Source: Trebonia sp. (GTDB taxonomy: Bacteria; Actinomycetota; Actinomycetes; Streptosporangiales; Streptosporangiaceae). Taken from it: DNA of 64,000 bases. Every line of letters starts with the position of its first letter. Within the stretch, counting starts at the first letter, position 1. Below, in pieces: positions 13,162-62,622 of the stretch. Below the pieces are notes generated by a model. That model was not told the DNA's origin. It saw only the letters and a program-made list of their open reading frames with translations, and did not search any database. The translations under genes and the position numbers were made by a program. The DNA lies in NCBI GenBank assembly GCA_036276115.1, contig DATBEM010000025.1, positions 1 through 64,000 on the forward strand, in the 5' to 3' direction.

Positions 13162-13193
13162 GAGGGCAGCCTAGGGCCTGCCCGGGCGGGCCC

Positions 13194-15182: not shown

Positions 15183-15214
15183 GGCAGGGGCGGACACGCC
15201 GACAGGGTACCTTT

Positions 15215-15718
15215 TCAGCCCACTTCGCGCAGCCGCCCGGTCGCGACGTCGAACACGAAGCCGCGGACCTGGTCCTTGTGCGGGACGAAGGGGCTCGCCG
15301 TGACCCGCGCGACCGACTGCCGGACGTCCTGGTCGAGGTCGGTGAACGCCTCGGTGGCCCACGGCGGCCGGACGCCGGCGTCGGCCTCGATCGCGTCCTT
15401 CAGCCCGGCGTCGGTGAACTTCGCCATGCCGCAGTCGGTGTGGTGGAGGAGCGCGACCTCGCGGGTGCCGAGCAGCCGCTGGCTGATCACCAGCGAGCGG
15501 ATGGCGTCGTCGGTGATGACCCCGCCGGCGTTCCGGATCACGTGCGCGTCGCCGGGGGCGAGGCCGAGCACGGAGTGCACGTCGAGCCGCGAGTCCATGC
15601 AGGCGATGACGGCCAGGCGCAGCGCGGGCGGGTGGGGCGCGGCCCCCGGGTAGGCGGCGGCGTACTTCTCGTTGCGGGCAAGCAGCTCATCGATCACGCC
15701 AGAAATTAGACCAGGCAC
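15215..15718 (-). CDS. Beta-class carbonic anhydrase
   Basis: CMDSRLDV…HTDCGM zinc-ligand motifs typical of beta-CA; 167 aa. Confidence 0.85.
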   Translation of the reverse strand: MPGLISGVIDELLARNEKYAAAYPGAAPHPPALRLAVIACMDSRLDVHSVLGLAPGDAHVIRNAGGVITDDAIRSLVISQRLLGTREVALLHHTDCGMAKFTDAGLKDAIEADAGVRPPWATEAFTDLDQDVRQSVARVTASPFVPHKDQVRGFVFDVATGRLREVG

Positions 15719-15862
15719 CCGGCCAGACGGCTACCCGCGCCTCGCGGCCGACGACCTTTCGGCATGCTTGTCCGATTCGTTACCAAAGTGCCTGCAACCA
15801 TCTAATGACATCGAGCGTCCCCATTTCTGAGGAGTCTCGAAGCTAGACGTTGAGAGGTCGGT

Positions 15863-39816: not shown

Positions 39817-39893
39817 TGGTAGCGGGGGTAGGATTTGAACCTACGACCTCTGGGTTATGAGCCCAGCGAGCTACCGAACTGCTCCACCCCGCG
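39817..39893 (-). tRNA. tRNA-Met (anticodon CAT), initiator-like features
   Basis: Reverse complement folds as CGCGGGG-TG-GAGC…GCTGGG-CTCATAA-CCCAG…GTAGG-TTCAAAT-CCTAC-CCCCGCT-A-CCA: 7-bp acceptor with 1:72 mismatch, three G:C pairs closing the anticodon stem, encoded CCA. Confidence 0.85.
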
Positions 39894-39938: not shown

Positions 39939-42800
39939 TCAGGAGGCGGCCGGGGTGGCGAGCCAGACGGTGTAGTCGAGCTCCCAGGGAGCGGCGGGCG
40001 GGCCGGTCAGCAAGTGAGCGTCCTGCGCTGTCTTCAGGTTGACGAGCTGGCGGGGCTGGGCGCCGGTCACGGCGACGGAGGCGGACGTGCTGCCGAGCAG
40101 GACAGGCTGGCGGCCGGCGTGCTGGACGGCGGTGACAGCCTGCTGGACGGCGGAGGACGAGGTGTCCGTCAGGCGGGCGACCGGGACGCCGCACATGCCC
40201 CGTACGGTCTGCGCGAGCGCGTCGGTCGTGCTGGCATCCACGATGAGGACGCTGGTGGACTGGTCGATCGACTTGCAGATCCGGAACACGGCCGGGTACT
40301 CGCGGGTGTAGGTGGTCCGCAGGGCCATGCCGCGCACCGCCAGGTGGCGGGCACCGGTCGTACCGCTGGTGCTGGCGGCCGGGCCGGTAGCCGACGTTAC
40401 CGAGCTGCTGGTCGTGGCCGACGCCGAGCTGCCGGAGGATGTCGTGGCACTGACGTAGCCGGGGTCGAACGTCGTGACGGCAGCCGGGATGGCCAGGGCG
40501 AGGACGGAGCACGCCACCACGAGCCCGCCTGTCAGCGGGCCGGCGCCGAGCTCGGAGCCGCGCATCCGGATGCGGGAGCATACCCACAGGGCCAGGCAGA
40601 TCAGGGCGGGCAAGACGACGGGCACCAGCCTGCGGCTCGCCCAGGGCTGGTCGGGGAGGGTCGCCGGGTCCCACAGGGTGACGGCGGTCGCCCAGAAGAA
40701 GACCATCAGCGGCAGCGCCCAGAAGCGGGCCGCGACGGGGGTGCCGCGCCACTGGAACAGGGCGCGGACGCAGCGGCGGCCGAGCAGGGCCGCGCCGATG
40801 ACGGCGAGCAGGACGGCGGGCAGCCCGACGTACCAGATCACCCAGTTCAGGCTCTGCTCGTAGTACTGCTGGCGGCCGTCCACGGGTAGCCCGGCCACCC
40901 GCTGCACGGCGGCGACGAAGTCAATGACGTAGGGGTCGGTTGCGCCCTTGGTCACCTGGACCGACGGCCGGATGGCGAGGCCGATGAGGGCCGCCACCGG
41001 GATGAGCAGGGCCACGCCCTCGGCCAGGGCCCGGACCACCGGGATGCGCCGGGTCTGGCCGCCCAGGCCCATGACCGGCATCCGCCACCGGGTGACCCGC
41101 CGGGCCCGCGCCCGGACGGCGGGGAACGCGAACGGCGCGATGAGCGCGGTGAGGACGCCGAAGGCGGCGGCCGCGAAGCCGATGTCGTGCAGCTGGGGGG
41201 CGAGGGTGGCCAGGTACGGCCGGGCCAGGGTGACGCCCTCCAGGACCGATAGTCCCGCCCCGATCACCAGGCCGACGGTGAGCGGGCCGGCTTGCGGGCG
41301 CCGGGCGATGAAGATGAGCGCCAGGAACGGGAACAGCGGCAGGAGGATGGCGAGCGACCCGATGTTGGCCAGGACGGTCAGGCCGAGGGCGATGCCGCCG
41401 AACCAGGCGAGGGTCATCGCCTGCCAGGCCACCCGCCGTCCCCTGGCCTTGGGGGCCGGCCGCAGTCCGGGCGGGCGGAACCCGGGCGTGTTGACGACCA
41501 GCGAGTCAAGTACGAGCGATAGGCCGCCAAACAGCAGGACCTGCACGAGGGGATCGCTGAGGGAGGTCCGGCTGGCGTACTGCTCGGGCAGCGTCACCGC
41601 GAGGACGAGGGCGGCCGCGGGCGCCCACCGGCCGCCGGCCAGCCGCCCCGCCAGGCCCGCGAACGACAAGATCGCGCAGCCGCCGAGGAACGGCGCGACG
41701 AGCAGCCCGCCGCCGACGCCGTGCGCCCATAGCCCCGCCGCGATCGCCAGCGGCAGCCCGGCCATGAAGGCGGGGGTCAGGCCGGACCCGTTCGCCAGGA
41801 AGCCCGGGCTGGTGAACTGCAGGCCAGGGATGCTGCCGAAGGCGCCCGGGTAGGTCGGGATGCGGGCCGTCCCGTGCTCGGCGATCCACCAGGCGTACTG
41901 GAAGTACTCACCCGGGTCGCGGAACACGATGAGCTGCTGCGACCGTTCCAGCGCCTGCCAGGCGGCGAACCCGAGGGCGATGGCGACCGTCGTCAGCACC
42001 GCCCACGCGGGCGCGTCCGGCCGGGCCCGGCGGCCGCGCGGACCGAGGGCCGGGGCGGGCGCGACGGCCGGCGCGGGACCGGTCGCCTGCGGGGCCGCGA
42101 CCGGGGCGGCGGCCGGCGCGGGCGCTTCTGCGGCCAGGGCCGCGGGCCGGCCTGACGCGAACTTGGGCCAGCTCACTGGCAGCTGCCGCATCGCGAAGTA
42201 GAACAGGGCGATCGTCAGGGGGATGAAGATGACGAGCATCGGCGACGGCAGCAGCCGCCCGGCCAGCAGCAGGCCGGCTCCCGGCAGCAGCCAGGCGATC
42301 GCCAGCAGCACCGGCGCCAGGGTCACGGCCGCGAACACCCATCCGGGCAGCCAGGGCCGGGCGGCGTACCAGTTCCGGGTCGCCTTGGCCTGGGCGAGCG
42401 ACCCGGCCAGCCAGCTTGGGGCGGGCTGGCCTGGCCGCGCTGGCCGGCGCCACCCGCGCTCGGGAGCGGCTGGCGGCCCCGCGTCCTCAGCCGGCGAGGC
42501 CTTGGATACGGGTGAGGCTTGATCCGATGCCGGCATCACCTGAGTGGCCGACAGCGCCTGCGCTGCTCCCGCCGATCCAGCCGCCGCAGGCTCCCCGGAC
42601 GCGGCGGCCCGCACGCCAGGATCACCTGCCGGGGGCGTCCCCGACGGGCCCTGCGGCGGCGACGCTCCCCGTCGCTTGCCTGGCTGCGGCAGGATTCCCC
42701 GCGGCAGGATTCTCCGGCGCGGTGCGGCGCCGTCTTCCTCTTGCACGGCTGGCCGCTCACCGACAGCGGGCTTGCGCGCTCCTGGGAGTCGTGAGTGCAC
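39939..42800 (-). CDS. Large polytopic membrane protein (953 aa) with Pro/Ala-rich N-terminus and Ser/Thr-rich extracytoplasmic C-terminal domain; putative GT-C-like glycosyltransferase
   Basis: Long ORF with >10 TM helices followed by TTSSGSSASATTSSSVTSATGPAASTSGTTGA low-complexity and a ~150-aa soluble C-terminus; exact start uncertain. Confidence 0.55.
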   Translation of the reverse strand: MHSRLPGARKPAVGERPAVQEEDGAAPRRRILPRGILPQPGKRRGASPPQGPSGTPPAGDPGVRAAASGEPAAAGSAGAAQALSATQVMPASDQASPVSKASPAEDAGPPAAPERGWRRPARPGQPAPSWLAGSLAQAKATRNWYAARPWLPGWVFAAVTLAPVLLAIAWLLPGAGLLLAGRLLPSPMLVIFIPLTIALFYFAMRQLPVSWPKFASGRPAALAAEAPAPAAAPVAAPQATGPAPAVAPAPALGPRGRRARPDAPAWAVLTTVAIALGFAAWQALERSQQLIVFRDPGEYFQYAWWIAEHGTARIPTYPGAFGSIPGLQFTSPGFLANGSGLTPAFMAGLPLAIAAGLWAHGVGGGLLVAPFLGGCAILSFAGLAGRLAGGRWAPAAALVLAVTLPEQYASRTSLSDPLVQVLLFGGLSLVLDSLVVNTPGFRPPGLRPAPKARGRRVAWQAMTLAWFGGIALGLTVLANIGSLAILLPLFPFLALIFIARRPQAGPLTVGLVIGAGLSVLEGVTLARPYLATLAPQLHDIGFAAAAFGVLTALIAPFAFPAVRARARRVTRWRMPVMGLGGQTRRIPVVRALAEGVALLIPVAALIGLAIRPSVQVTKGATDPYVIDFVAAVQRVAGLPVDGRQQYYEQSLNWVIWYVGLPAVLLAVIGAALLGRRCVRALFQWRGTPVAARFWALPLMVFFWATAVTLWDPATLPDQPWASRRLVPVVLPALICLALWVCSRIRMRGSELGAGPLTGGLVVACSVLALAIPAAVTTFDPGYVSATTSSGSSASATTSSSVTSATGPAASTSGTTGARHLAVRGMALRTTYTREYPAVFRICKSIDQSTSVLIVDASTTDALAQTVRGMCGVPVARLTDTSSSAVQQAVTAVQHAGRQPVLLGSTSASVAVTGAQPRQLVNLKTAQDAHLLTGPPAAPWELDYTVWLATPAAS

Positions 42801-42818
42801 GGACCCACTGTAGACGGC

Positions 42819-44159
42819 CTAGCTGTGCGAGGGGCCACAGGCAGGGGCGACTACATGCTGGTCGTTGCCATCGCGGCTAGCCGTGACGGCCAGCAGCCAC
42901 AAGGCGAGCGTCCCGGGGTAGATGAAGTAGCCAAAACGGGTCGATGGCGCCAGCAGGAACATCAGCGACATCGCCCAGACGAGCAGGAAGACCGCCCGGT
43001 GAACGGTCCGGGGCGGCCTGATCACCAGCGTCGCCGCCACCGCGAGGGCGGTCAGCCCCAGCAGCCCCACGACGGCCGTGTGCCCGGCGTGCCCCAGCCC
43101 GGCGAGCAGGTGGCCGGGCAGCGGGCTGGCCGCCGCCGAGCGGATGCGGGTCAGCCCGAGCGGGAACTCGATCGTGTTGACGACTAGCTCGCGGGGCGGG
43201 GACAGGAACGGCCCGATGCACACCGCCGCCACCGCCACGGCGACCCCGGTGAAGCGGGCGGCGGCCCGCCAGCCGTCGCGGGCGGCGAGCATGACGATCG
43301 CGACCACCAGGCCGGGCCAGGCAGTCGCCTTCATCCCGGCCGCGATGCCCAGGGCGATGGCCGCCAGCGTGACACGGGGGGCGGGCTGGCTGGCGAGCAG
43401 GGCGAAGCCGAGGCACAAGAACGCGACCATGGGCACGTCGGTGCCGCCCACCGCCAGCTCGAGCGCCACGACCGGGCTGGCGGCGACGAGCACTGTCCAC
43501 CGCCAGGTGTCGCGGGCGCCCCCGGCGCGCAGCGCCCATGCGAAGACGACCAGGAACGCCAGCCCGAACCAGATCCGGGGATCGGTCACGGGACTGGCGA
43601 CCAGTGCCCGCGGCAACCCGAACAGCGCCATCACCGGCAGGTAGGGGTTATAGGCGTTGGGGTCGGAGGTCGCCGCCAGGGCGGTGGCGCTGGCATAGGG
43701 AGTGCCGTGGTGGATGAGCGTGTACGCGGACCGCGCGACCACATCGACCTCGGGCTGGCGCAGGTGGCGGACGGCCATGACCGACAGCGGCACGAGGAGC
43801 GCCCCGAGCAGGGACGCCGCCAGGGCGAGGTCGATCCCCCAGCGCGCGAGCCGGCTTTCCAGCAGCAGCCCGCCCCGGGCGGCGAGCACGGCCAGGGCAG
43901 CGACCCCGTACCCGATCGCGGCCATGTCGCCCCAGAGGCGGTGCACTGGGTCGGAACTGAAGATCGCGACCGCCACCGCGTAGCCCGCCGAGACCACGAG
44001 CAAGCCAGCCAGCCAGTAGCCGGGCCACGTGACCGGGGACTGCCACGGGTCGCCGAGCCGCAGGGCCGACAGGCTCAGCGCCGGGCGCCCCGGGGCCGGC
44101 CGGCCGGCATCGGAAGGCCGCCCCGCCTCCGGCTCCTCGCGCCCCCGCTCAGTAATCAC
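42819..44159 (-). CDS. DUF2029/GT87-like polytopic membrane protein (polyprenyl-phosphate-sugar dependent glycosyl/mannosyltransferase family, putative)
   Basis: 446 aa, ~12 TM helices; overall architecture and loop motifs resemble PimE/MptB-type GT-C enzymes. Confidence 0.5.
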   Translation of the reverse strand: MITERGREEPEAGRPSDAGRPAPGRPALSLSALRLGDPWQSPVTWPGYWLAGLLVVSAGYAVAVAIFSSDPVHRLWGDMAAIGYGVAALAVLAARGGLLLESRLARWGIDLALAASLLGALLVPLSVMAVRHLRQPEVDVVARSAYTLIHHGTPYASATALAATSDPNAYNPYLPVMALFGLPRALVASPVTDPRIWFGLAFLVVFAWALRAGGARDTWRWTVLVAASPVVALELAVGGTDVPMVAFLCLGFALLASQPAPRVTLAAIALGIAAGMKATAWPGLVVAIVMLAARDGWRAAARFTGVAVAVAAVCIGPFLSPPRELVVNTIEFPLGLTRIRSAAASPLPGHLLAGLGHAGHTAVVGLLGLTALAVAATLVIRPPRTVHRAVFLLVWAMSLMFLLAPSTRFGYFIYPGTLALWLLAVTASRDGNDQHVVAPACGPSHS

Positions 44160-44196
44160 CCTCGCGATGCTACTTGGTTCGGAGATGTGCGATTCC

Positions 44197-45630
44197 TCAG
44201 CCCACGTTGTGGTCGCTTTCAGCCTCAGCGGCTAGGGCCGCCGGGTCAGGGCCGCCGGCGACCAGGCTGGCGCCCGGCGGCAGTTCGGGGCCAGCTGCCG
44301 GGACGAGGCCGACGCCGGCCACGTCGGCTCCCGCCGGACCAGCGGCGGTCACGGCGGCGGCCCGGGGTCCCGGGCGCGGCGCCACCAGGCTGGCGATTCG
44401 CCAGCTGGCGATGTAGTCGGCCGCCTCGAGCCCGGCCAGGTAAAGCCCCATCGCGACGAAGACCGGCGTGGTAAGGCTGCCGAGCAGGGCGATCCCGATC
44501 AGGATCATCCGGCCTTCCCAGCCGAAGCCGCGCCAGTCCGCCCGGGGCAGCCGCTGCCCTCGGCGGTCCATGAACCAGCTGAGCGGCACCCGCTGCCGCG
44601 CGCGATAGGCCATGTCGAGGTGCCGCAACCCCACCGCCGCGACCAGGCCGAACGTGACCGGTCCGGGCGTGTGCCCGGCATAGCCGGCCGCGGCCAGGAA
44701 GACGTACTCCCCCGCCTGCAAGAACGCGGGCACCCGCCAGTCGCCGGGCCCGTCGTGCAGGTGCGAGGAGCCGAGCGCGGCCAGCAGCATCGCCTCGGCC
44801 GGGGTGAGGACCAAGATCCCGGGCAGGTTCCGCAGCCCGAGGGCGGCCAGCATGCAGGTGACCAGTAGCCCGACCAGCAGCGGGGCCAGCGGTGGCAGTC
44901 GTCCGGCCACCAGCCCGCCGATCCAGGCCGACACCGGCCCGTCGCCCCGGTACCCGGCCACGCCGGTGGCGCCGCCGCCCGGCCGCAGGAGGGTGACCAG
45001 CAGCCCCAGCAGCGCCAGGACAAGGACGACGACCAGCCCCAGGCGCGGCCCGGCCAGCAGCACGGCCAGGCCGGCCAGCAGCAGCCGGACGGCGCCGAGC
45101 CGGGGCAGCCGCGCGGCCGGGCCGGCCGCGCAGAGGGCGGCGGTGTGGTTCAGCGTGAGGGCGACGGCGGCGACGACGGCGAGCGCCCATGCCCCGGAAG
45201 CGCCCAGCCCCCCCGCGTGGCCGATCATGGTGCCTTGCAGCGACGGTCCGAGCGGGCCGCCGAGCCCGTTGGCGGTGCTCCCGGCTGCGGCCCCGGCGAG
45301 GCTGACGGCGCCCGCCAGGGCGGCGTAGATGCCGAGCTCGCCCAGCAGCGCGCAGGCGGCCCGGCTCCACTCGGAGGCGACGGTGACCCGGTGCCCGGTC
45401 ATCGCCCGGGCGGCCGCGGCGGCGAGGACTGACGCGACGAGGAAGGCGAGGGCGAGTACCTGCGGGCCGGGCGAGGACTCGGTGAACCAGGCGGCGGCGA
45501 TGACGGCGAGGCCGAGGGAGGACGCGGCCATCGCGGCGGGAGCGAGCTGCCGCTCGTCCGCCCATCGGGCGATATCAGCGGTAACGCGATCAGCGACCCG
45601 CGTCGTAGCCGGTATTGACACCGCGATCAC
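44197..45630 (-). CDS. Polytopic integral membrane protein of unknown function (477 aa)
   Basis: Ala/Leu/Gly-rich, many TM helices; divergent from the IspD-like gene with a 64-bp intergenic region. Confidence 0.5.
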   Translation of the reverse strand: MIAVSIPATTRVADRVTADIARWADERQLAPAAMAASSLGLAVIAAAWFTESSPGPQVLALAFLVASVLAAAAARAMTGHRVTVASEWSRAACALLGELGIYAALAGAVSLAGAAAGSTANGLGGPLGPSLQGTMIGHAGGLGASGAWALAVVAAVALTLNHTAALCAAGPAARLPRLGAVRLLLAGLAVLLAGPRLGLVVVLVLALLGLLVTLLRPGGGATGVAGYRGDGPVSAWIGGLVAGRLPPLAPLLVGLLVTCMLAALGLRNLPGILVLTPAEAMLLAALGSSHLHDGPGDWRVPAFLQAGEYVFLAAAGYAGHTPGPVTFGLVAAVGLRHLDMAYRARQRVPLSWFMDRRGQRLPRADWRGFGWEGRMILIGIALLGSLTTPVFVAMGLYLAGLEAADYIASWRIASLVAPRPGPRAAAVTAAGPAGADVAGVGLVPAAGPELPPGASLVAGGPDPAALAAEAESDHNVG

Positions 45631-45694
45631 GATTACCCAGCGTACCGGGGGAAGGTCGATTAATCAGGGATCTCACCCCGGTAAAGTCCGGCAT

Positions 45695-46411
45695 GTGACA
45701 GGGATTTCGGCGATTAAGCGGACCGTGGCGGTTGTTCTCGGTGGCGGCGCGGGCACCCGGTTCGGCGCGGACCGGCCCAAGCAGCTGCTGACGCTCGACG
45801 GCCAGACGCTGGTGGAGCATTGCGTGGCGGCGTTCAACGAGGCCCCCGGGGTGGATGAGGTGCTCCTCGTCATGGGCCCAGGGTTCACCGACGAAGCCGC
45901 GGCGATGTGCGGTGACCAGGTCAGCGCGGTGATCGAGGGCGGCGCGAGCCGGGCCGACTCGGTCCGCAACGCGCTGCGCCACCTGACCGCGCGGCACGAC
46001 CCCTGGGTGACGGGGGTCCTGCTCCACGACGCCGCCCGGCCGCTGGTCGACCAGCGGGTCATCGCCGACTGCGTCGCGGCGCTGCCGTCTCACGACGCGA
46101 TCGGCACCGCCATCCCCACCGCCGACACCATCGTCGTGGTGGAGGACGGCGTGATGACCCACATCCCGAAGCGGGAGACGCTGATGCGCTGCCAGACCCC
46201 GCAGTGCTTCCGGCTGTCGGTCATCAACGAGGCCCACCTGCTGGCGTCGCAGGACCCGGCCTTCATCCCGACCGATGACTGCGGCGTCGTCCTGCGCTAC
46301 CTCCCCCAGGTCCCGGTGCACGTGGTCCAGGGCAGCGAGCGGACCCTCAAGGTCACCTACCCGGCCGACCTGGCGATCGCGGAGCTGCTCAAGATCTCAC
46401 GGCCTGCTTGA
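45695..46411 (+). CDS. IspD/TarI-like cytidylyltransferase (NTP transferase, CDP-alcohol forming)
   Basis: RTVAVVLGGGAGTRFGADRPKQLLTLDGQTLVEHCV…VDEVLLVMGP matches the IspD glycine-rich and substrate loops; GTG start at 45695 chosen (track ORF extends upstream). Confidence 0.75.
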   Translation: MTGISAIKRTVAVVLGGGAGTRFGADRPKQLLTLDGQTLVEHCVAAFNEAPGVDEVLLVMGPGFTDEAAAMCGDQVSAVIEGGASRADSVRNALRHLTARHDPWVTGVLLHDAARPLVDQRVIADCVAALPSHDAIGTAIPTADTIVVVEDGVMTHIPKRETLMRCQTPQCFRLSVINEAHLLASQDPAFIPTDDCGVVLRYLPQVPVHVVQGSERTLKVTYPADLAIAELLKISRPA

Positions 46412-47774
46412 TCAGGGTCCGGCCAAAGTCCCACATCAGCCCGGAGCCGCGGCTAGCGTCGTCCAGCACGTCGTCCAGGGCCTCCAGGAACAGCGTCACC
46501 TCGGCGTCGCTGATCATCAGCGGCGGAATGAGCTTGATCACTTCCATGTGGTCGCCGGAGACCTGGGTCAGGATGCGGTGCCGCTGGAAGAGGGCGACCA
46601 CGACCATCTGGGCGAACAGCCCGACCCGGGCCTTTTGCAGCATCGCCCACCCGGCTCGCGCCCGCATGCCCGACGGCCGGCCGAACTCGATGCCGATGAT
46701 CAGCCCGCGCCCGCGCACGTCCGCGATGAGGTCGTACTTCTTGCGCAGCCCGTCCAGCCCCGCCAGCAGCGCCGCCCCGGTCCGGGCGGCGTTCTCCACC
46801 AGGCCCTCGTCCTCGATGACGGCCAGCGCGGCCAGGCCCGCGGCCATGGCCAGCGGGCCACCCTTGAAGGTGGTCGAGTGAACCATGATGCGGTCCATGG
46901 AGGAGTAGACCGAGCTGAAGATCTTGTCGGTCGTCAGCATCGCCCCGACCGGCACGTAGCCGCCGGACAGGGCCTTGGCGACGGTGACGATGTCGGGCTG
47001 GACGTCCGGCTCGTGCTGGTAGGAGAAGAACCGCCCCGAGCGCCCCATTCCGGCCTGGACCTCGTCGCAGATCAGCAGGGCGCCGTGCTTGTGCAGGAGC
47101 GCGGCGGCGGCGGCGAGGTACCCGGGGGGCGCGGACAGCACGCCGTGCCCCTGGATCGGCTCGATGATCATCGCCGCCACGTCGCCCCGCTTGAGCTCGG
47201 CCTCTAGGGCCTCTAGCGACCCGAGCGGGATCTGGGCGCCGGGCAGCAGCGGCCCGAAGCCGCGCTTGAACTCATCCGCCCCGTTGACCGACAGCGACCC
47301 CGCGCTCAGCCCGTGGAAGCCGTGGACGGCGTACACGATCCGGCCCCGGCCGGTGAAGTAGCGCGCGAACTTCAGCGCCGACTCGACCGCCTCGCTGCCG
47401 CTGTTGCAGAAGAACACCCGCTCCATGCCCGGCGCGTGGGCCAGCAGCCGCCCGGCCAGCAGGCCGGCGATCGGCTGGCAGTCGAACTGGGTCCAGCTGG
47501 CGAAGTCCATGTCCAGCGCGTCGGCTAGGGCCTGCTTGATCACCGGGTGGCTGCGCCCGGCCGCGAACACGCCAAAGCCGCTCAGGAAATCGGCGTAGGC
47601 GTTCCCGGCCTCGTCGTACAAGTACGCGCCCTCGCCCCGCACGTAGACCTTGTCGAATCCGATCGTGTGCAGCGTGCGCGGCAACTGGTGGTTCAGGTAC
47701 TTGGTGTGCAGTTCGTACCCTTGCCCGGCGACGGCGTCCAGTTCAGCCTTCAGGTCAAAGCCCATGGAGGGCAT
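46389..47774 (-). CDS. Class III (fold-type I) PLP-dependent aminotransferase
   Basis: …FLSGFGVFAAGRSHPVI…, …DEVQAGMGRSGRFF… (the G in GMGR replaces the usual T of TG(F/L)GRTG), PLP lysine context …TVAKALSGG…; 461 aa. Confidence 0.85.
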   Translation of the reverse strand: MPSMGFDLKAELDAVAGQGYELHTKYLNHQLPRTLHTIGFDKVYVRGEGAYLYDEAGNAYADFLSGFGVFAAGRSHPVIKQALADALDMDFASWTQFDCQPIAGLLAGRLLAHAPGMERVFFCNSGSEAVESALKFARYFTGRGRIVYAVHGFHGLSAGSLSVNGADEFKRGFGPLLPGAQIPLGSLEALEAELKRGDVAAMIIEPIQGHGVLSAPPGYLAAAAALLHKHGALLICDEVQAGMGRSGRFFSYQHEPDVQPDIVTVAKALSGGYVPVGAMLTTDKIFSSVYSSMDRIMVHSTTFKGGPLAMAAGLAALAVIEDEGLVENAARTGAALLAGLDGLRKKYDLIADVRGRGLIIGIEFGRPSGMRARAGWAMLQKARVGLFAQMVVVALFQRHRILTQVSGDHMEVIKLIPPLMISDAEVTLFLEALDDVLDDASRGSGLMWDFGRTLIKQAVRS

Positions 47775-47787
47775 TTTAGGCTGAGTC

Positions 47788-48846
47788 TCAGCCCTGCTTG
47801 GCCGCGCGCCGGGCGAGGCGGCGGGGGCTGGTGAGGAACCCGAGCCCCCACGTCATGTGCATGGTGGCGAGCACGGCCGGCACCCGCGCCCGCACCGGCG
47901 CTGGCAGGTCCCGCGCGAGCACGAGGGCCGCCCCCGTCACCCCGGCCAGGTAGGCGGCGGGGATGACGAAACCGAGCGTGAGGTAGGGCAGGAGGCTGAC
48001 CATATCTTCAGCGAGAGCTACCGCCCCCACGACGCCGAGGACGGTCCCGGCGATGTTGGCGGCCGCGGCGGCCGGGGGCGCCAGGTACCGCCGGTTCACG
48101 GTCTCGGGGTAGCGGCGGGCGACGACACGCCGCCATCGTCCGTAGCGGAAGTGCTGGTGGGCCAGGGTGTAGAGGCTGGCCCGGGGCCGGTAGGTGACGC
48201 GCAGATCGGGGGTGAACCAGATCAGCCCGCCCCCGGCCCGGATCCGGTAGTTCAGCTCCCAGTCCTCGGCCACGATCATCGTCTCGTCGTAGCCGCCGGC
48301 CCGCTCGATCGCGTCCCGGCGATAGACCCCGAGGTAAACGGTGTCGGCCGGGCCGGCCTCGCCGCCGGTGTGGTTGGCGGCCGCGCCCATCCCGACCGGG
48401 GAGGTCATGCACCAGGCGACGGCCTGCTGGAACGGGGTGACGCCCTCGGCCGCCATGAGCCCGCCGACATCGGCCGCACCGGTCTCCGCGAGCGTGCGGA
48501 CGGCGGTGGCGAGGTACCCGTCGGGCAGCATGGCGTGGCCGTCGATGCGGGTGATCACGTCGTACCGGGCGGCCTTGATCGCCACGTTCATGGCCGAGGC
48601 GATCTTGCCCGAAGGATTCCGGACGACGGTGACCCGGGGGTCGGCCGCAGCGAGCTGGAGCGCGATCGGCTCGGTGCGGTCCCGCGAGGGCCCGACGGCA
48701 AGGACGAGCTCGAAGCCGCCCGCGTAGTCCTGCTCAAGCACGCGCGCCACGGCCTCGGCGAGGTGCCGTTCCTCGTTGCGGACCGGCATGACCACCGACA
48801 CGGCTGGCAGCGCGGGAGCTAGATCATCGTGAAAGTCGCCCGTCAC
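47788..48846 (-). CDS. GT2 glycosyltransferase with C-terminal TM helices (GtrB/ArnC/PpgS-like polyprenyl-phosphate glycosyltransferase)
   Basis: VVMPVRNEERHLAEAV…QDYAG…RDRTEPIA…, DxD-like EDWELN, two C-terminal TM helices; 352 aa. Confidence 0.8.
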   Translation of the reverse strand: MTGDFHDDLAPALPAVSVVMPVRNEERHLAEAVARVLEQDYAGGFELVLAVGPSRDRTEPIALQLAAADPRVTVVRNPSGKIASAMNVAIKAARYDVITRIDGHAMLPDGYLATAVRTLAETGAADVGGLMAAEGVTPFQQAVAWCMTSPVGMGAAANHTGGEAGPADTVYLGVYRRDAIERAGGYDETMIVAEDWELNYRIRAGGGLIWFTPDLRVTYRPRASLYTLAHQHFRYGRWRRVVARRYPETVNRRYLAPPAAAAANIAGTVLGVVGAVALAEDMVSLLPYLTLGFVIPAAYLAGVTGAALVLARDLPAPVRARVPAVLATMHMTWGLGFLTSPRRLARRAAKQG

Positions 48847-48913: not shown

Positions 48914-50296
48914 CTACAAGCTGGTGTCCTCCAGCATGTCGGTCACGAGCGCGGCGATCGCGGAGCGCTCGGAACGGGTCAGGGTGACGTGCGCGAACAG
49001 CGGGTGGCCCTTGAGCTTCTCGATGACCGCGACCACGCCGTCGTGCCGTCCGACCCGCAGGTTGTCGCGCTGGGCGATGTCGTGGGTCAGCACGACCCGC
49101 GAGCCGGTGCCGATCCGCGACAGCACGGTCAGCAGCACCCCGCGCTCCAGCGACTGCGCCTCGTCCACGATGACGAAGGCGTCGTGCAGGCTCCGGCCCC
49201 GGATGTGGGTCAGCGGCAGCACCTCGAGCATGTCGCGGGCGATGAGCTCGTCAATCACGTCCTGCGTTGTCACCGCGCCGAGGGTGTCGTAGACGGCCTG
49301 CGCCCACGGGTTCATCTTCTCGGCCTCGCTGCCCGGCAGGTAGCCGAGCTCCTGGCCGCCGACCGCGTACAGCGGCCGGAAGACGATCACCTTGCGGTGC
49401 TGGCGGCGCTCCATGACCGCCTCCAGCCCAGCGCAGAGCGCGAGGGCGGACTTGCCGGTGCCGGCCCGGCCGCCCATGCTGACGATCCCGACCTCGGCGT
49501 CCAGCAGCAGGTCGAGGGCGACCCGCTGCTCGGCCGAGCGGCCGTGCAGCCCGAACGCCTCCCGGTCGCCCCGGACGAGCTGGATCTGCTTGTCGGGCCG
49601 CACGCGGCCAAGGGCACTGGCGCTGCCGGTGGACAGCACCAGGCCGGTGTGGCAGGGGAAATCGCGGGCGGCCGCCAGGTCGAGCACACCGTTCTCGTAC
49701 AGGTCCTCAATGTCGCGGCTGGCGACGGCGAGCTCCGCCATGCCAGTCCACCCCGAGTCAGCCGGCAGCTCCGCGCGGTACTCCTGCGCCTCCAGGCCGA
49801 TCGCGGCGGCCTTGACCCGCAGCGGCACGTCCTTGCTGACCAGGACCACGTCGTGGCCCTCGTTAGCGAGGCTGCGGGCTACGGAGAGGATGCGGGTGTC
49901 GTTGTCCCCGAGCCGGAATCCGGCCGGGAGCACCTGCGCGTCGATGTGGTTGAGCTCGACCCGGAGCGTCCCGCCAACCGGGCCGACCGGGAGCTCGGTG
50001 TCCAGCCGCCCGTACTCCACTCGCAAGTCATCGAGGTGGCGCAGGGCCTGCCGGGCGAAGAACCCGAGCTCGGGGTGGTCACGCTTGGCTTCCAGCTCAG
50101 TGATGACGATGACGGGGATGACCACGTGATGCTCATCGAATCGCGTGATCGCCGCCGGGTCAGAGAGCAGGACGCTCGTGTCGAGGACGTAAGTACGCCG
50201 GTGGAACTCAGAGTTGGCCACGCAAACTCCCCTGGGCGCTGGCCAAGGCCGAGCGCCGCGGACAGGGACCCGTTGCCTCCGGTCCACCGGAAACAT
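48914..50296 (-). CDS. phoH2: PhoH2: N-terminal PIN-domain RNase fused to PhoH-like ATPase/helicase
   Basis: PIN acidic residues (YVLDTSVLL…, ITELE), PhoH Walker A GRAGTGKS and conserved …VIVDEAQ… box. Confidence 0.85.
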
Positions 50297-50682: not shown

Positions 50683-52659
50683 ATGGGCGGCTTCGTCACG
50701 GGGGACGACCCCGCCGGGCAGGCAACTCGGGCGCCGTCGCCTACCGCGGACGGCAGCTTCGCGCAGGGCGGCCCGAGCGATACCGCGCGCCCTGGTCCAT
50801 GGCAGGTGCTGGTTCTCAGCCATGCGTCGGGTCCTCATGGCCGGTGCGCGGGAATGGCCGACGATGAGGTGTTCGGCGTGCTGGGCCGTTGGGGGGCGGC
50901 GGAGTGCTGGGTAGCGGCCCGGAAGCTGGCGGTGGCCCGCGAACTGATCCGGCGCCGGCCCAGCGAGGAGAATCCCGGCGAGGCCACGCACTCCGGCTTG
51001 CCCTGGGAATGGGACGACCGGCTGGCCTACGAGGTGGCCTTGCACCTGCGGATGTCGATCCCGGCGGCACGGAAGCTGTTGCAGGCGGCGTGGGCGCTGG
51101 AGGCACGCCTGCCCCGGATCGGGCAGGCCCTGGACGAAGGTCGCGTCGACCTGGGACGGGCGCGGATGCTCGTCCAGGAGACCGACGTCCTCAGTGCGCC
51201 GGAGGAACTGCGGAGGGCCGAGGAACTGATCCTGGCCGGGCTGGACCGCTGCCAGACCTGGACCGACCTGCTCCGGCTGGCTCAGCGCGCCGTGGTCACG
51301 GTCGATCCCGCGGGCGCGGCTAAGCGCCGGCAGAAGGAGGAGCGCGAGAACGCCCGGGTCTCGTTCTGGCGCGAGGCCGCCGGGACCTGCGCCCTGCTCG
51401 GCTCCGGCCTGCCCACCGACGAGGCCCTGCAAGCCCACGCCCACGTGGACCGGCGCGCCCAGCAGTACCGCGCCGCCGGCATCAAGCGCCCGATCGGCAT
51501 CCTCCGCGTGGCCGCCTACCTCGACCTGCTCAACCTCGCCCCCGCCGCCGACCGCATCGCCCGCTTCCAAGCCGAAGACGCCACCGCCGGGGCGGCCCAG
51601 GCCGGCGACCGGGCCGGGAGAGCCGGGACGCCCCGCGACGCCCGGGACCCCGAGCATCCCGCAGCTACCCGGAATCCCGAGCCCGCCGCTCCCACCACGC
51701 CGAGCGCCGACGCCAGCGCGGGTGCCCAGGCCAGTGCGAGCACGGAGGCCAATGCTGGCGCCCAGGCCGCTGCTGGCGCCCAGGCCAATGCTGGCGCCCA
51801 GGCCAGCGGCGGCACGGAGGCCAATGCTGGCGCGGGCACGGAGGCCAGTACGGGCACGGAGGCCGGTGCCCGCGCGGAGGCCGGTGCGGGCAGCGGTCGC
51901 GGGACGGACGGATCCGGGCCTCCCGTCGCGGCGGAGGTCAACCTCGTGCTCAGGCACCTCGACATCCCGTTCCTCACCGCCGCCGGGCATGCCCAGCGAG
52001 CAGGGGAGGCCCGCAGCCTCGGCGTCCTGGACCCCGTGCTCGCCCGCCGGATCGCCGAGGCAGCCGCCCGGCACCCCGATAGCAAGTTCTGCCTGACCAT
52101 AGTCGACGAAAACGGCTGCGCCATTGGCCACGGCTGCTGCCGGCCTCGCCGGGCGCGGGGCGCGCGAAGTTCCCGGGAACGCCGCGAGGGGCAGTTCGAC
52201 GGCCCGCCGCCACCTCCCGCGCAAGGGTTTGCCCTCGCCCGGGCCGACGGGACCGGGCCACCGGGGGGCTTCGGCTCATGGCTGCTTACCCTGCCCGGCC
52301 AGGGCCGGGACTACGTCGTTGACTTGCACCCGGTCCCGACCGGGGAGTGCGGCCACCAGTATGAGTCCGCCGGCCACGACCCGGGCGATCGCCTCCGGCA
52401 CCTAGTCAACGTCCGCGATGGCAAGTGCGGCTTCCCGGCTTGCTCCCGCCATGCCAGGGAGACCGACTTCGAGCACGCGCGGCCATACGACCAGGGCGGC
52501 CGGACCTGCGGCTGCAACTGCTGGTCCTGCAGCCGCTCCTGCCACCGGGTCAAGCAGTCCCGCGGATGGAAGGTAGAGGAGGTCAAGCCCGGACACCACC
52601 AGTGGACGACGCCTTCCGGCCGCACCTACACCCAAGGCCCCTGGCGCTATCCCGTGTGA
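50683..52659 (+). CDS. DUF222 + HNH endonuclease domain protein (actinobacterial 13E12-repeat-family type), with internal low-complexity repeat region
   Basis: DUF222-like N-terminal region, C-terminal HNH (…CGFPACSRHARETDFEHARPYDQGGRTCGCNCWSCSRSCHRVKQ…); middle Ala/Gly/Gln/Asn/Thr/Glu repeats. Confidence 0.7.
   Translation: MGGFVTGDDPAGQATRAPSPTADGSFAQGGPSDTARPGPWQVLVLSHASGPHGRCAGMADDEVFGVLGRWGAAECWVAARKLAVARELIRRRPSEENPGEATHSGLPWEWDDRLAYEVALHLRMSIPAARKLLQAAWALEARLPRIGQALDEGRVDLGRARMLVQETDVLSAPEELRRAEELILAGLDRCQTWTDLLRLAQRAVVTVDPAGAAKRRQKEERENARVSFWREAAGTCALLGSGLPTDEALQAHAHVDRRAQQYRAAGIKRPIGILRVAAYLDLLNLAPAADRIARFQAEDATAGAAQAGDRAGRAGTPRDARDPEHPAATRNPEPAAPTTPSADASAGAQASASTEANAGAQAAAGAQANAGAQASGGTEANAGAGTEASTGTEAGARAEAGAGSGRGTDGSGPPVAAEVNLVLRHLDIPFLTAAGHAQRAGEARSLGVLDPVLARRIAEAAARHPDSKFCLTIVDENGCAIGHGCCRPRRARGARSSRERREGQFDGPPPPPAQGFALARADGTGPPGGFGSWLLTLPGQGRDYVVDLHPVPTGECGHQYESAGHDPGDRLRHLVNVRDGKCGFPACSRHARETDFEHARPYDQGGRTCGCNCWSCSRSCHRVKQSRGWKVEEVKPGHHQWTTPSGRTYTQGPWRYPV
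51700..51900 (+). repeat. Degenerate tandem repeats (units around gccaatgctggcgcccaggcc / ggcacggaggcc) inside the HNH gene
   Basis: Encodes ASAGAQASASTEANAGAQAAAGAQANAGAQASGGTEANAGAGTEASTGTEAGARAEAGAG; repeat read directly. Confidence 0.8.
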
Positions 52660-52662
52660 AAC

Positions 52663-53424
52663 CTAGCCGCCGAAGCGGCGGTTGCGCTCGGCGTAGGCCC
52701 GTAGCGCCCGCAGGAAGTCGACCTTGCGGAAGGCGGGCCAGTAGGCGTCGCAGAAGTAGAACTCCGAGTGGGTCGACTGCCACAGCAGGAAGCCACCCAG
52801 GCGCTGCTCGCCGCTGGTGCGGATGACGAGGTCGGGATCGGGCTGGCCGGCCGTGTAGAGGTGCTCGGCGATGTGCTCCACGTCGAGGATCTCGGCCAGT
52901 TCCTCGATCGTGGTGCCCTTGCTGGCGTACTCGTAGAGCATCGAGCGGACCGCGTCGGCGATCTCGCGGCGCCCCCCGTAGCAGACGGCGACGTTGACGA
53001 GCAGGCCCGGGTTGTCGGCCGTGTCCTCAGCCGCCTGCTTGAGCGTCCGGGCCATGTCGTCGGGCAGCAGGTCGAGGGCCCCCATGGGCTTCACGTGCCA
53101 GCCCTCGTCGACCAGGCCGGTCACGGTGTTCTCGATGATCTTCAGCAGCGGCCCGAGCTCCTCGGCCGGCCGGTTCAGGTTGTCGGTGGACAGCAGCCAC
53201 AAGGTGACGACCTCGACCCCGGTCTCCCGGCACCACTGCAGGAGCTCGAAGATCTTGTCGGCCCCCTTGCGGTGGCCCGTGCTGACGTCGCTCAGCCCGG
53301 CCATGCGCGCCCAGCGGCGGTTGCCGTCGCACATGACGCCTACGTGCTTGGGGATCCCCTTGCCGTGGAGCGAGGCTTCAAGCCTGCGCTCGTAGATCCG
53401 GTATGCCGGGCCGCGCAGATCCAT
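52663..53424 (-). CDS. Isoprenyl transferase, cis-prenyl diphosphate synthase (UppS family; short-chain Z-FPP synthase-like)
   Basis: HVGVMCDGNRRWA, …DNLNRP…, C-terminal RFGG; 253 aa. Confidence 0.85.
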   Translation of the reverse strand: MDLRGPAYRIYERRLEASLHGKGIPKHVGVMCDGNRRWARMAGLSDVSTGHRKGADKIFELLQWCRETGVEVVTLWLLSTDNLNRPAEELGPLLKIIENTVTGLVDEGWHVKPMGALDLLPDDMARTLKQAAEDTADNPGLLVNVAVCYGGRREIADAVRSMLYEYASKGTTIEELAEILDVEHIAEHLYTAGQPDPDLVIRTSGEQRLGGFLLWQSTHSEFYFCDAYWPAFRKVDFLRALRAYAERNRRFGG

Positions 53425-53525: not shown

Positions 53526-54104
53526 CTAAGAATCCGTGACCTCCTGGTCATCCGGGGTTTGCCCGGCGGATCCGGCACCCGGCCCCTGGGCGCGGACCTC
53601 CTCGACGTGCCGCAGCGCGGACCGCAGCTCGCTCAGCCAGGCATCGGCGTGCTGGCCAGTGAGCCGCACGCACCACGCGAGGGCGTCGGACCGGCTGCGG
53701 GCGACCCCGGCGTCCACGAGGGTGTCCAGGACGCGCCGCTCGGCCTGCCGCAGCCGGGTCATGACCGGGACCGACAGCGTAGTGAAGGTCTCGCTGGTGT
53801 CGCCGCACCGGACGCCCCAGGCGACCTTGCGGCGGAACCGGTGCTCGGCCTCGCGGGCGATCTCGATCCGCCGCTCGCGGGTGTCCTCGCGAAACCGCTT
53901 GATCCGCCCGGCGGTAAAGCCCTCGTCGGCCCCGTCACCGTCGCTGGCCGACAGGGTCCCGATGACGGTGATCTCCTCGCGGTCCACGACGACCTCGGCC
54001 GGCCCGGTGAACCACTCGCCGGGCAGCCGCCCGGCGAACCATCCGCTTACCTGCTCCTGTGTGCTCATGTAATTATGATTACACTGCAAGAAGTATTCGG
54101 TCAA
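53526..54104 (-). CDS. Hypothetical protein
   Basis: ORF with charged, Arg/Glu-rich composition; probable start at internal ATG ~54068 (MSTQEQVSGW…); no recognisable motif. Confidence 0.4.
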   Translation of the reverse strand: MTEYFLQCNHNYMSTQEQVSGWFAGRLPGEWFTGPAEVVVDREEITVIGTLSASDGDGADEGFTAGRIKRFREDTRERRIEIAREAEHRFRRKVAWGVRCGDTSETFTTLSVPVMTRLRQAERRVLDTLVDAGVARSRSDALAWCVRLTGQHADAWLSELRSALRHVEEVRAQGPGAGSAGQTPDDQEVTDS

Positions 54105-60732: not shown

Positions 60733-60841
60733 GCCCTCATTGTCGCCGCTGGCAGGAGCTGATACGGCCCTGTCACCAGTGCCAGGCCCGTGACAGCGCC
60801 GTGTGCGCGCCCTGCCAGGGCCGCCCCGCAGACTAAGGGAC

Positions 60842-61819
60842 ATGACAGACCTAGCGATTGAGGCCATCGGGCTCACGAAGTCCTTTGGCGAGACGAAGGC
60901 GCTGACGGGGGTGGACCTGTCGGCCCGCAAGGGGACCGTGCTGGGCGTCCTGGGGCCGAACGGCGCCGGGAAGACCACGGCGGTCCGCATCCTGGCCACG
61001 CTGCTGCGAGCGGATTCGGGCAAGGCCCGGGTCAACGGCTACGACGTCCGTGCCCAGGCCGACAAGGTCCGCCAGAGCATCGGCCTGACCGGCCAGTTCG
61101 CGTCGGTGGACGATGACCTGACCGGGATGGAGAACCTGGTCATGATCGGCCAGCTGCTGGACTTGACCGCGAAGGCGGCCAAGGCCCGGGCGGCCGAGTT
61201 GCTGGAGTGGTTCGACCTGACCGAGGCGGGCAGGAAGCGGGCGAAGAACTACTCGGGCGGCATGCGGCGGCGGCTGGACCTGGCCGCGTCCCTGGTTGGC
61301 CGGCCGCCGGTGATCTTCCTGGACGAGCCGACGACCGGGCTGGACCCGGCCAAGCGCGAGGACATGTGGGACGTCGTCCGCTCGCTTGTCAGCGACGGGT
61401 CCACAGTGCTGCTGACCACGCAGTACCTGGAGGAGGCGGACGCCCTCGCCGACGAGATCACCGTGATTGACCATGGCGCCGTCATCGCCCACGACACCCC
61501 GCACGGGCTCAAGCGCGTGGTCGGCGGCCAGCGGCTGACCGTCCACCCGATCGACCCGGCCCGCTACGACGACCTGATGGCGGTGCTGTCCGGGATCACG
61601 GCGGTCGACGGGCACGCCCCCGAGACCAACGGCCGCGGCTCGGTGACGGTCCGCGTCGCCGGCGACGACGTGCTGCCCGACGTGGTGGCCAAGCTCCGCG
61701 CGGCCAGCATCGCGGTGGACGAGCTCTCCCTGCACCTGCCCAGCCTGGACGAGGTGTTCTTCACGCTGACCGGGACCCGGTCGCACGACTCCCTGGCCTT
61801 CCAGGAGGTATCGGCATGA
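60842..61819 (+). CDS. ABC transporter ATP-binding protein (DrrA/ABC-2 type)
   Basis: Walker [10 protein letters not shown], signature YSGGMRRRL, Walker [12 protein letters not shown]. Confidence 0.85.
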
Positions 61820-62622
61820 CCGCCATGACCCTGACCACCACCGCCGTCGCGCCCGCGCGGTCGCGGTTCAACCCCAAGCACGCGCTGGTCCTGGCCAAGC
61901 GCAACGTCATCAAGTCCATGCGCACGCCCGAGCAGTTCATGGACGTCACGCTGCAGCCGATCATCTTCCTGGGCTTGTTCACCTACATCTTCGGCGGGGC
62001 GCTGGCCGGCGGCTCGCAGCACTCCTACCTGGAGTTCCTGCTGCCGGGCATGCTCGGCCAGACGATCGCGATGAGTAGCATCGCCATCGGGCAGAACCTG
62101 CACGCCGACATCGACAAGGGCGTCTTCGACCGGTTCCGGTCACTGCCGATCGCCCGGGCGATGCCCCTGATCGGCGCGGTGATGGCGGAGTTCATCCGCT
62201 ACACGCTGGTGTTCGTGGTCACCGTCGGGTTCGGCTACGTCATCGGCTTCCGGATCGGGACCGACCCGCTCAAGGTGCTCGGCGCCTTCGCGCTGTGCAT
62301 CGCCTTCGCGCTGGCGTTCGCGTGGGTCTCGGTGTTCGTCGGCATGACCGTCCGCAGCGCGGGCGCCGTGCAGGGCATCATGTTCCTGTTCATCTTCCCG
62401 CTGTCGTTCGGCAGCAACGTCTTCGTCCAGCCCAAGACGATGCCGGGCTGGCTGCAGGCCTTCGTGAACGTCAACCCGATGTCGCACATGGTGTCGGCCG
62501 TGCGCGGCCTGATGCTCGGCGGCCCGGTCGGCACGCAGGTGCTGTGGACGCTCGCCTGGTGCGCCGGCCTGCTGGTCGTCTTCTTCCCGCTGGCCCTGCG
62601 CGGCTACATCCGGCGGGCGTGA
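61816..62622 (+). CDS. ABC-2 family transporter permease (DrrB-like), 6 TM
   Basis: ABC-2 membrane domain; 4-bp overlap with upstream ATPase gene. Confidence 0.8.
   Translation: MTAMTLTTTAVAPARSRFNPKHALVLAKRNVIKSMRTPEQFMDVTLQPIIFLGLFTYIFGGALAGGSQHSYLEFLLPGMLGQTIAMSSIAIGQNLHADIDKGVFDRFRSLPIARAMPLIGAVMAEFIRYTLVFVVTVGFGYVIGFRIGTDPLKVLGAFALCIAFALAFAWVSVFVGMTVRSAGAVQGIMFLFIFPLSFGSNVFVQPKTMPGWLQAFVNVNPMSHMVSAVRGLMLGGPVGTQVLWTLAWCAGLLVVFFPLALRGYIRRA

Follow-up and report, generated by a model that had tools for sequence, protein, structure and literature searches.

In Firmicutes, the cytidine diphosphate (CDP)-ribitol route to wall teichoic acid (TarI/TarJ/TarL, with TagO, TagGH and a LytR-CpsA-Psr (LCP) ligase) is supplied with activated polyol phosphate by a cytidylyltransferase of the IspD/TarI family. 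A cytidylyltransferase likewise accompanies CDP-alcohol phosphotransferases such as the archaeal and bacterial IPCT-DIPPS, PIP synthase and CHPT1, while the mycobacterial PimE and Rv2181/MptC, of the phosphatidylinositol mannoside, lipomannan and lipoarabinomannan (PIM/LM/LAM) pathways, are polytopic GT-C glycosyltransferases of family GT87. The GtrAB-Gtr*, ArnC/ArnT, CsbB/YfhO and PpgS/Rv3779 systems combine a membrane-anchored GT2 glycosyltransferase with a GT-C protein in one neighbourhood. In Streptomyces, a block of araM, CDP-alcohol phosphotransferase, GT2 and nucleotidyltransferase genes sits with tagGH and is uncharacterised (PMC13118837). A locus that recalls several of these systems lies in a Trebonia sp. 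genome (assembly GCA_036276115.1), at positions 39939-48846 of the first 64,000 nucleotides of contig DATBEM010000025.1, a stretch referred to here in its entirety as the window. The locus comprises genes for a large polytopic membrane protein, a GT87 glycosyltransferase, a membrane protein with a DUF5941 domain, an IspD/TarI-family cytidylyltransferase, a class III aminotransferase and a membrane-anchored GT2 glycosyltransferase. By analogy, it is most like CDP-polyol-dependent teichoic acid assembly joined to GT-C decoration of the kind found in mycobacterial lipoglycans, and it is a member of neither.

The likenesses and differences are specific. With the Firmicutes route the locus shares the IspD/TarI-family supplier of activated polyol phosphate and, presumably, lipid-linked assembly; a TarJ-type reductase, TagF/TarL (Glyphos_transf), TagO and TagGH are all missing, only relatives of the locus have an LCP ligase and a module for activating glycerol phosphate, and in place of these components stand a DUF5941 protein derived from CDP-alcohol phosphotransferases, a GT87 protein and an unclassified membrane protein of about 800 residues. 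The N-terminal domain of the DUF5941 protein shares ancestry with CDP-alcohol phosphotransferases, its gene is paired with a cytidylyltransferase gene, and some of its relatives retain the DxxDGxxAR...GxxxDxxxD motif and match the PF01066 and PIP-synthase models; unlike IPCT-DIPPS, PIP synthase or CHPT1, however, the window protein has no Asp tetrad and carries an appended domain of about 200 residues, and its partner is of the IspD/TarI rather than the NTP_transferase type. The GT87 protein is in the Pfam and CAZy family of PimE and Rv2181/MptC and is itself a polytopic GT-C protein whose loops carry conserved acidic residues, but no genes for a phosphatidylinositol anchor are nearby and GT87 is dispensable in two related loci (L002 and L003). 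As in the GtrAB-Gtr*, ArnC/ArnT, CsbB/YfhO and PpgS/Rv3779 systems, one neighbourhood holds both a GT-C protein and a GT2 anchored in the membrane; here, however, the GT2 is ExoA/MftF/HpnI-like, no GtrA-type flippase is present, and the two genes lie in separate transcription units. The gene set of the uncharacterised Streptomyces araM block occurs as an insertion in relatives of the locus and is not in the window.

The best explanation, to which we give about an even chance, is that the window holds a minimal variant of a clade-specific locus that makes or decorates a lipid-linked envelope glycopolymer resembling a teichoic acid or lipoglycan. Beyond the family assignments, we infer every mechanistic step. 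The cytidylyltransferase would make a CDP-activated polyol phosphate, either CDP-methylerythritol or a close analogue (CDP-ribitol or CDP-erythritol), which the DUF5941 protein would bind, or whose polyol phosphate it would transfer, at the cytoplasmic face of the membrane by means of its conserved C-terminal domain and not its dead CDP-alcohol phosphotransferase site. The GT2, an ExoA/MftF-like membrane-anchored enzyme, would glycosylate a lipid-linked acceptor with a nucleotide sugar as donor; after export, the GT87 protein would add a hexose taken from a polyprenyl-phosphate-sugar made by housekeeping enzymes. To our knowledge, mannose is the hexose transferred by all characterised GT87 enzymes. 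The membrane protein of about 800 residues, with its extracytoplasmic C-terminal domain, would extend, export or attach the product. All five of these proteins conserve residues of catalytic type. This reading retains part of a preliminary description of the same DNA, which had proposed a six-gene envelope pathway for an aminated polyol: an envelope locus linking GT87, IspD/TarI and DUF5941 genes stands, and the GtrB logic and the amination fall away. Treboniaceae and related Streptosporangiales are abundant in acid soil and peat, and their envelopes are essentially unstudied.

All six genes are real as judged by codon-position GC, hidden Markov model (HMM) matches and conservation in more than 80 related loci, and they occupy the coordinates at which they were first described, with third-position GC (GC3) of 0.89-0.95 in their coding frames. 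They do not, however, form a single six-gene operon. The cytidylyltransferase gene is on the forward strand and the other five are on the reverse strand, and the layout is one of three transcription units: PhoH2, GT2 and aminotransferase (-); cytidylyltransferase (+); and DUF5941, GT87, large membrane protein and tRNA-Met (-). The cytidylyltransferase (238 aa; 45695..46411, +) and DUF5941 (477 aa; 44197..45630, -) genes diverge from starts separated by a 64-bp spacer (45631..45694, read directly from the sequence), which is presumed to be their shared promoter region; a sigma-70 consensus scan found no site within it, and a promoter and terminator scan inside the locus gave nothing informative. 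At its 3' end the cytidylyltransferase gene overlaps the end of the aminotransferase gene by 23 bp. Public gene calls use start codons that differ from those of the maximal open reading frames (ORFs).

Conservation of this arrangement was followed with a degenerate-pattern scan, built on a DUF5941 alignment, of 185,579 species genomes, which returned 76 loci, all of Trebonia/Streptosporangiaceae type; tblastn with the window proteins, run on these loci and on others found later, was used to map gene order. In more than 80 loci from genomes and metagenomes, down to 30% DUF5941 identity, the order is nearly invariant: AbmR, prenyltransferase, PhoH2, GT2, a variable slot, cytidylyltransferase on the opposite strand, DUF5941, optional modules, GT87, an optional LCP gene and the large membrane protein. 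In 16 of the 21 loci tested the gene after that of the large membrane protein is a tRNA-Met gene, which marks the downstream end of the conserved synteny. Wherever the contig extends over the upstream flank, the short contigs L086 and L087 included, the locus has the divergent cytidylyltransferase and DUF5941 pair, which stays intact while the neighbouring slots vary. The preliminary description had staked its proposal on GT-C matches in the membrane proteins and on conserved linkage of the cytidylyltransferase gene to its neighbours, and neither failed outright: the GT87 protein matches its model and the linkage is conserved, while the large membrane protein has no HMM match.

The family assignment of the cytidylyltransferase is secure, with a PF01128 match of 175.5 bits against a gathering score of 27 (E = 1.7e-51). 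The P-loop LGGGAGTRFG, K29, HDAARP, QTPQ, TDD and K219 are conserved, with G17, G18, G20, R22, K29 and K219 at least 93% identical across 77 sequences, and from these residues the active site is intact. The idea that the enzyme makes a CDP-activated alcohol, advanced when it was first described as IspD/TarI-like, is strengthened by the CDP-alcohol phosphotransferase ancestry of the DUF5941 protein and by the modules and LCP ligase of related loci. The top match in the PDB is Mycobacterium smegmatis IspD at 106 bits, with Staphylococcus aureus TarI at 92.5 bits. Against the IspD equivalog model TIGR00453 the window enzyme scores 182.6-184.4 bits (cutoff 181.3), and against the ribitol-5-phosphate cytidylyltransferase model NF001183 it scores 129-130 bits. 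These scores were calibrated with three genuine IspD sequences (M. smegmatis, M. tuberculosis and Neisseria, two of them from Actinobacteria) recovered from PDB alignments, which reach 229-240 bits on TIGR00453 and 80-90 bits on NF001183, whereas the DUF5941-linked enzymes reach 133-197 and 96-155 bits, respectively. Orthologues in L085 and L083 fall below the IspD cutoff, and the Trebonia kvetii enzyme scores 155 bits on NF001183, against a cutoff of 166. Because they score below the genuine IspDs on the one model and above them on the other, the DUF5941-linked enzymes are, by model score, intermediate between the IspD and TarI types. "IspD" annotations in the Trebonia/Streptosporangiaceae clade may be over-assigned. 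Opposite the cytidylyltransferase gene lies a 243-aa ORF (45590-46321, -) that was considered as a gene and rejected as an antisense shadow, with no Pfam match and the GC3 of a wrong frame; such high-GC shadows are open to being mis-called as genes.

The DUF5941 protein, described initially as a polytopic membrane protein of 477 aa, matches its Pfam family at 36.2 bits (gathering score 27), and its GTG start at 45630 is backed by relatives that conserve the extra N-terminal residues. It consists of a degenerate N-terminal domain resembling CDP-alcohol phosphotransferases (residues ~20-175) and the C-terminal DUF5941 domain (residues ~225-420). In the latter fall the residues that are at least 93% identical among 52 sequences, in motifs YRGDG, GRLPP, HxHDGxxDWxVP, QxxEY, RHxDxxYRAR and GWEGRM; invariant or at least 93% identical positions are R228, D230, G231, H290, H292, D297, W298, E308, R343, R345 and G370-W-x-G-R-M, a pattern that suggests a functional site. 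The C-terminal domain was also considered as a CDP-alcohol phosphotransferase relative and found unrelated (hhalign Prob 1.4), its "RDDGxxAR" resemblance to DGxxAR being probably a coincidence.

Searched with a profile, 1.84 billion representative proteins yielded 553 DUF5941 members, many of 500-900 aa, and in 4 of 70 long members PF01066 (CDP-OH_P_transf) lies N-terminal to DUF5941; the family member P0257 also matches archaetidylinositol-phosphate and PIP synthase models. In a MAFFT alignment, P0267 and P0276 have the intact motif DCVDGQVAR...G-SWL-D-PVS-D followed by EYAVYAGLA, where the window protein reads ...AAAAARAM...S-EWS-R-AAC-A followed by GELGIYAALA. The canonical motif D1xxD2GxxAR...GxxxD3xxxD4 is therefore absent from the window protein: the D1/D2 region has no Asp, G1/G2 are A/S and D3/D4 are R/A, and only the A-R pair is retained. 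The complete Asp tetrad survives in only 2 of 207 family members, and the Arg of the A-R pair (154/207) and a downstream Glu (187/207) are widely conserved. A profile of window-type sequences aligns by hhalign with a CDP-alcohol phosphotransferase profile that includes the bridging relatives (Prob 97.7, E = 2e-12), and the window-type N-terminal domain gives no signal against stand-alone CDP-alcohol phosphotransferases only; the homology is therefore transitive, by way of the bridging relatives. At the level of profiles and alignments, then, the protein is descended from CDP-alcohol phosphotransferases and has lost the catalytic Asp tetrad. Among 8 million papers searched, none mentions DUF5941, and the locus ties this uncharacterised family to the chemistry of CDP-alcohols and to a cytidylyltransferase that is atypical of the IspD/TarI kind, providing a testable hypothesis for a family that had none. 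Many DUF5941 proteins also bear extensions at the N-terminus, 150-420 aa long, that match no Pfam family (for example L052, 8501-10693, and P0257, P0267 and P0261, in which they span the N-terminal 380-420 aa). The possibility that these are degenerate nucleotidyltransferases, in the manner of IPCT-DIPPS, was rejected after hhalign was negative against NTP_transferase and IspD profiles.

The GT87 protein (446 aa; 42819..44159, -) bears out its first description as a DUF2029/GT87-like GT-C membrane protein. PF09594 matches at 32.4 bits against a gathering score of 25 (E = 1e-7), with the full 237-position model covered; the L052 orthologue also matches, and in NCBI annotation the orthologue is a "glycosyltransferase 87 family protein". 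The protein has about 10 hydrophobic segments, and D110, E137, D193 and D241 are at least 93% identical among 69 sequences. A phmmer comparison with solved structures detected no similarity, and D110 and E137 are at most candidate counterparts of the catalytic Asp of PimE. In L002 and L003 an HD_4 gene replaces the GT87 gene.

The large polytopic membrane protein (maximal ORF 39939..42800, -) was first described as 953 aa long with a Ser/Thr-rich extracytoplasmic tail, and both features require revision. The first ~120 codons of the ORF have a GC3 of 0.6-0.8, which is non-coding-like and below the 0.95 of the core, and alignments with relatives begin near residue 135. These features point to a protein of about 800-865 aa, its start likely being the ATG at 42536 (865 aa) or one lower, and the JGI call is 799 aa, from 42338. 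The Ser/Thr-rich segment is not a tail. It is a 34-residue linker (residues 784-817, 40350-40451; 21 of 34 residues Ser or Thr) leading to a predicted alpha/beta C-terminal domain of about 135 aa, the best-modelled part of the protein, with a predicted local distance difference test score (pLDDT) of 67-83. Some 13-15 transmembrane helices are predicted, one of which is followed by an invariant D295-P-G-x-Y299...H309-G motif. The protein has no HMM match at all, hhalign shows no relationship to the GT87 profile, and profile searches of both this family and the GT87 family against PDB sequences returned no matches.

The competing explanation that survives best, although unlikely, is that the conserved order is merely synteny of unrelated core genes: a housekeeping IspD of the methylerythritol phosphate (MEP) pathway, an ornithine- or putrescine-type aminotransferase and the PhoH2 RNA helicase, with only the DUF5941, GT87 and large membrane protein genes forming an envelope operon and no CDP-polyol entering a polymer. 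The cytidylyltransferase passes the IspD equivalog cutoff, and the residues that contact MEP and CDP-methylerythritol in Escherichia coli IspD presumably all have conserved counterparts in it. With no TarJ-like polyol-phosphate reductase at the locus, MEP would be the only ready substrate. On the IspD model, however, the linked enzymes score 33-107 bits under the three genuine IspDs, and on the ribitol-phosphate model 6-75 bits above them. In Mycobacterium and Streptomyces, ispD adjoins ispF or carD; here the gene is beside neither, and a scan of the GC3-supported window ORFs of 120 aa or more turned up no ispF or carD. Its divergent arrangement with the gene of a protein derived from CDP-alcohol phosphotransferases also persists wherever tested despite turnover in the neighbouring slots. 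Searching for homologues of the cytidylyltransferase yielded orthologues only, a result with no bearing on whether there is a second ispD.

Several observations weigh against the reading of the locus as one for a lipid-linked envelope glycopolymer, and some of them are the same ones that favour a housekeeping IspD. NCBI and JGI pipelines name the orthologues IspD, the TIGR00453 cutoff being passed by one to three bits only. All loci come from one clade, and the unrelated PhoH2, AbmR and NlpC/P60 genes are equally syntenic across about 25 kb, so the conserved order is weak evidence of a shared pathway. Among the scanned ORFs there is no intact CDP-alcohol phosphotransferase, TagF/TarL-type polymerase, TagO, LCP protein or polyol-phosphate reductase, nor a TagGH exporter. 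Since the DUF5941 protein lacks the Asp tetrad, its proposed transferase activity is conjecture, and both structure models are of low confidence (pLDDT 49 and 51).

The envelope glycopolymer reading gains support from what related loci carry in addition. In about 20 of them the interval between DUF5941 and GT87 holds an NTP_transferase gene, a gene resembling glycerol-1-phosphate dehydrogenase (NF002022 at 243 bits, under the cutoff of 413), a PIP-synthase-like CDP-alcohol phosphotransferase gene and a second GT2 gene; carriers are L081 (12583-16149), L025, L028, L033, L039-L047, L060, L064-L069, L079 and L083-L085. L084 has the dehydrogenase and the CDP-alcohol phosphotransferase fused into one, and in relatives the first part of the NTP-transferase gene lies within the end of the DUF5941 gene. 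A further set of loci has a gene for an LCP ligase before that of the large membrane protein, often near the four-gene module. The module is absent from the window, which has the minimal layout. From its gene content, the module is a candidate route to an sn-glycerol-1-phosphate polymer that is independent of LtaS. It is acknowledged that the way in which Actinobacteria synthesise (lipo)teichoic acids in the absence of LtaS has yet to be explained (PMC3196553), a question on which the glycerol-1-phosphate module and LCP ligase of these relatives bear.

A bolder proposal, which we consider distinctly doubtful, joins these strands. DUF5941 proteins would form a class of their own among membrane enzymes that transfer or polymerise polyol phosphate, derived from CDP-alcohol phosphotransferases by shedding the Asp tetrad and moving catalysis into the DUF5941 domain, and would use a CDP-polyol, possibly CDP-methylerythritol or CDP-erythritol, from the dedicated IspD/TarI paralogue; the extended locus of the relatives would be the route, long sought, by which Actinobacteria make poly(glycerol-phosphate) lipoteichoic or teichoic acids independently of LtaS. 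If true, a wall polymer would use an intermediate of the MEP-pathway type, which is unprecedented. A literature search returned nothing usable on erythritol teichoic acids or on GT87 together with a cytidylyltransferase in Streptomyces.

The GT2 glycosyltransferase (352 aa; 47788..48846, -) is encoded 67 bp downstream of PhoH2 and 13 bp upstream of the aminotransferase gene. It matches PF00535 at 81.4 bits (residues 17-182), PF13641 and, at 3e-5, PF13506 (GT21), with D56, D102-x-H104, E194-D-W and G236-R-W in the GT-A domain and two or three transmembrane segments beyond it (hydrophobic stretches at 255-311). The best NCBIfam match is MftF at 90 bits, followed by HpnI, PgaC and EpsD, with no GtrB, ArnC or DPM1 model among the 18 matches; the PDB matches (E = 3e-6 to 1e-3) are limited to GalT1, chondroitin synthase and generic GT-A folds, none of them GtrB or DPMS, and JGI labels the orthologues ExoA. 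The first assignment, as a GtrB/ArnC-like enzyme making a polyprenyl-phosphate sugar, is thus not borne out, and the GT2 more likely works at the cytoplasmic face, as a transferase with a lipid-linked acceptor. In L084 a DDE transposase gene lies just upstream of the GT2 gene.

These same GT21 (ceramide glucosyltransferase-type) and HpnI matches, together with a GRW motif that is (Q/R)xxRW-like, invite a further alternative, a membrane-lipid pathway in which the GT2 glycosylates a lipid alcohol, the DUF5941 protein builds or remodels a polar head group with a CDP-alcohol, and the GT87 and large membrane proteins elaborate the glycolipid. CDP-alcohol phosphotransferases are mostly phospholipid head-group enzymes, the intact relatives are PIP synthase-like, and the GT87 enzymes so far characterised act, as far as we know, on phosphatidylinositol mannosides and lipomannan. 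Such a pathway is nonetheless improbable: relatives carry within the locus an LCP ligase, which attaches polymer to peptidoglycan; IspD/TarI products are not known as lipid head groups; and the catalytic Asp tetrad is missing.

The aminotransferase (461 aa; 46389..47774, -) is a class III, omega-type enzyme dependent on pyridoxal phosphate (PLP). It matches PF00202 at 304.5 bits, and PLP-binding motifs DEVQAGMGRSG (237) and VAKALSGG (265) are present; its closest matches are the aminotransferase domain of PigE and the putrescine and acetylornithine aminotransferases, and JGI labels it "ornithine--oxo-acid transaminase". It fills the slot between GT2 and cytidylyltransferase in the window and in most Trebonia-like loci, where it is 66-85% conserved; the same slot holds a GH59 hydrolase gene in L085 (6498-8804) and is empty in L081, L083 and L084. 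Because its gene sits in a variable slot, the aminotransferase is probably not a core component but a lineage-specific passenger or accessory. The model of the preliminary description, in which a GtrB/ArnC-like GT2 charges polyprenyl phosphate for the GT87/GT-C protein while the aminotransferase and cytidylyltransferase supply an aminated polyol phosphate or sugar, is very improbable: the GT2 does have C-terminal transmembrane segments and a GT-C protein within 5 kb, and its gene is co-directional with and close to that of a conserved aminotransferase, but it lacks significant similarity to GtrB, DPMS or ArnC structures and models and is in a different transcription unit from the GT87 protein, and the aminotransferase is of the omega and not the sugar (DegT) type and is missing or replaced in L081-L085, which keep the GT2, IspD, DUF5941 and large membrane protein genes.

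On either side of the locus lie genes that share its conservation. The window has a G+C content of about 73%; a JGI metagenome contig (Ga0376674_0001147) matches part of it identically, and its closest named relatives are Trebonia sp. and Streptosporangiaceae metagenome-assembled genomes and Trebonia kvetii 15TR583. The tRNA-Met (CAT) gene at 39817..39893 (-) was called by ARAGORN and matches RF00005 at 65 bits; an Rfam scan of the window found no riboswitch or other RNA besides tRNA. Beyond this gene lie DUF2975 and HTH genes. In L012 two copies of tRNA-Met (15715-15791 and 18947-19023) are 3.2 kb apart, as expected of an integration site. Upstream, PhoH2 (a PIN-PhoH RNA helicase; 48914..50296, -; NF053827, 797 bits) keeps its place, at 78-92% identity, in nearly all loci, and is context only, with no evident functional link. 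The cis-isoprenyl diphosphate synthase of the UppS family (52663..53424, -; PF01255 at 245 bits, NF011403 at 393 bits against a cutoff of 348) also keeps its position in nearly all loci and could supply the polyprenyl carrier lipid. AbmR, identified by HMM, follows at 53526..54104 (-). Between PhoH2 and the prenyltransferase gene stands an HMM-identified DUF222 gene of the HNH/13E12-repeat type (50683..52659, +), found in the window (L001) and partially in L013 and L016 only, which looks like a mobile insertion into the conserved block. Elsewhere in the window, 12 kb from the locus and beyond a conserved DsbH and NlpC/P60 block, a DrrA-like ABC ATPase and an ABC-2 permease, conceivably a polymer exporter of the TagGH kind, are encoded at 60803-62622 (+). 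At 11944-15362 (-) and 15863-16723 (+), a second GT2/GT21-like glycosyltransferase gene lies directly downstream of one for a 722-aa protein with no Pfam match, and this pair, which adjoins an L,D-transpeptidase gene with a PG-binding domain, is possibly a further envelope pair.

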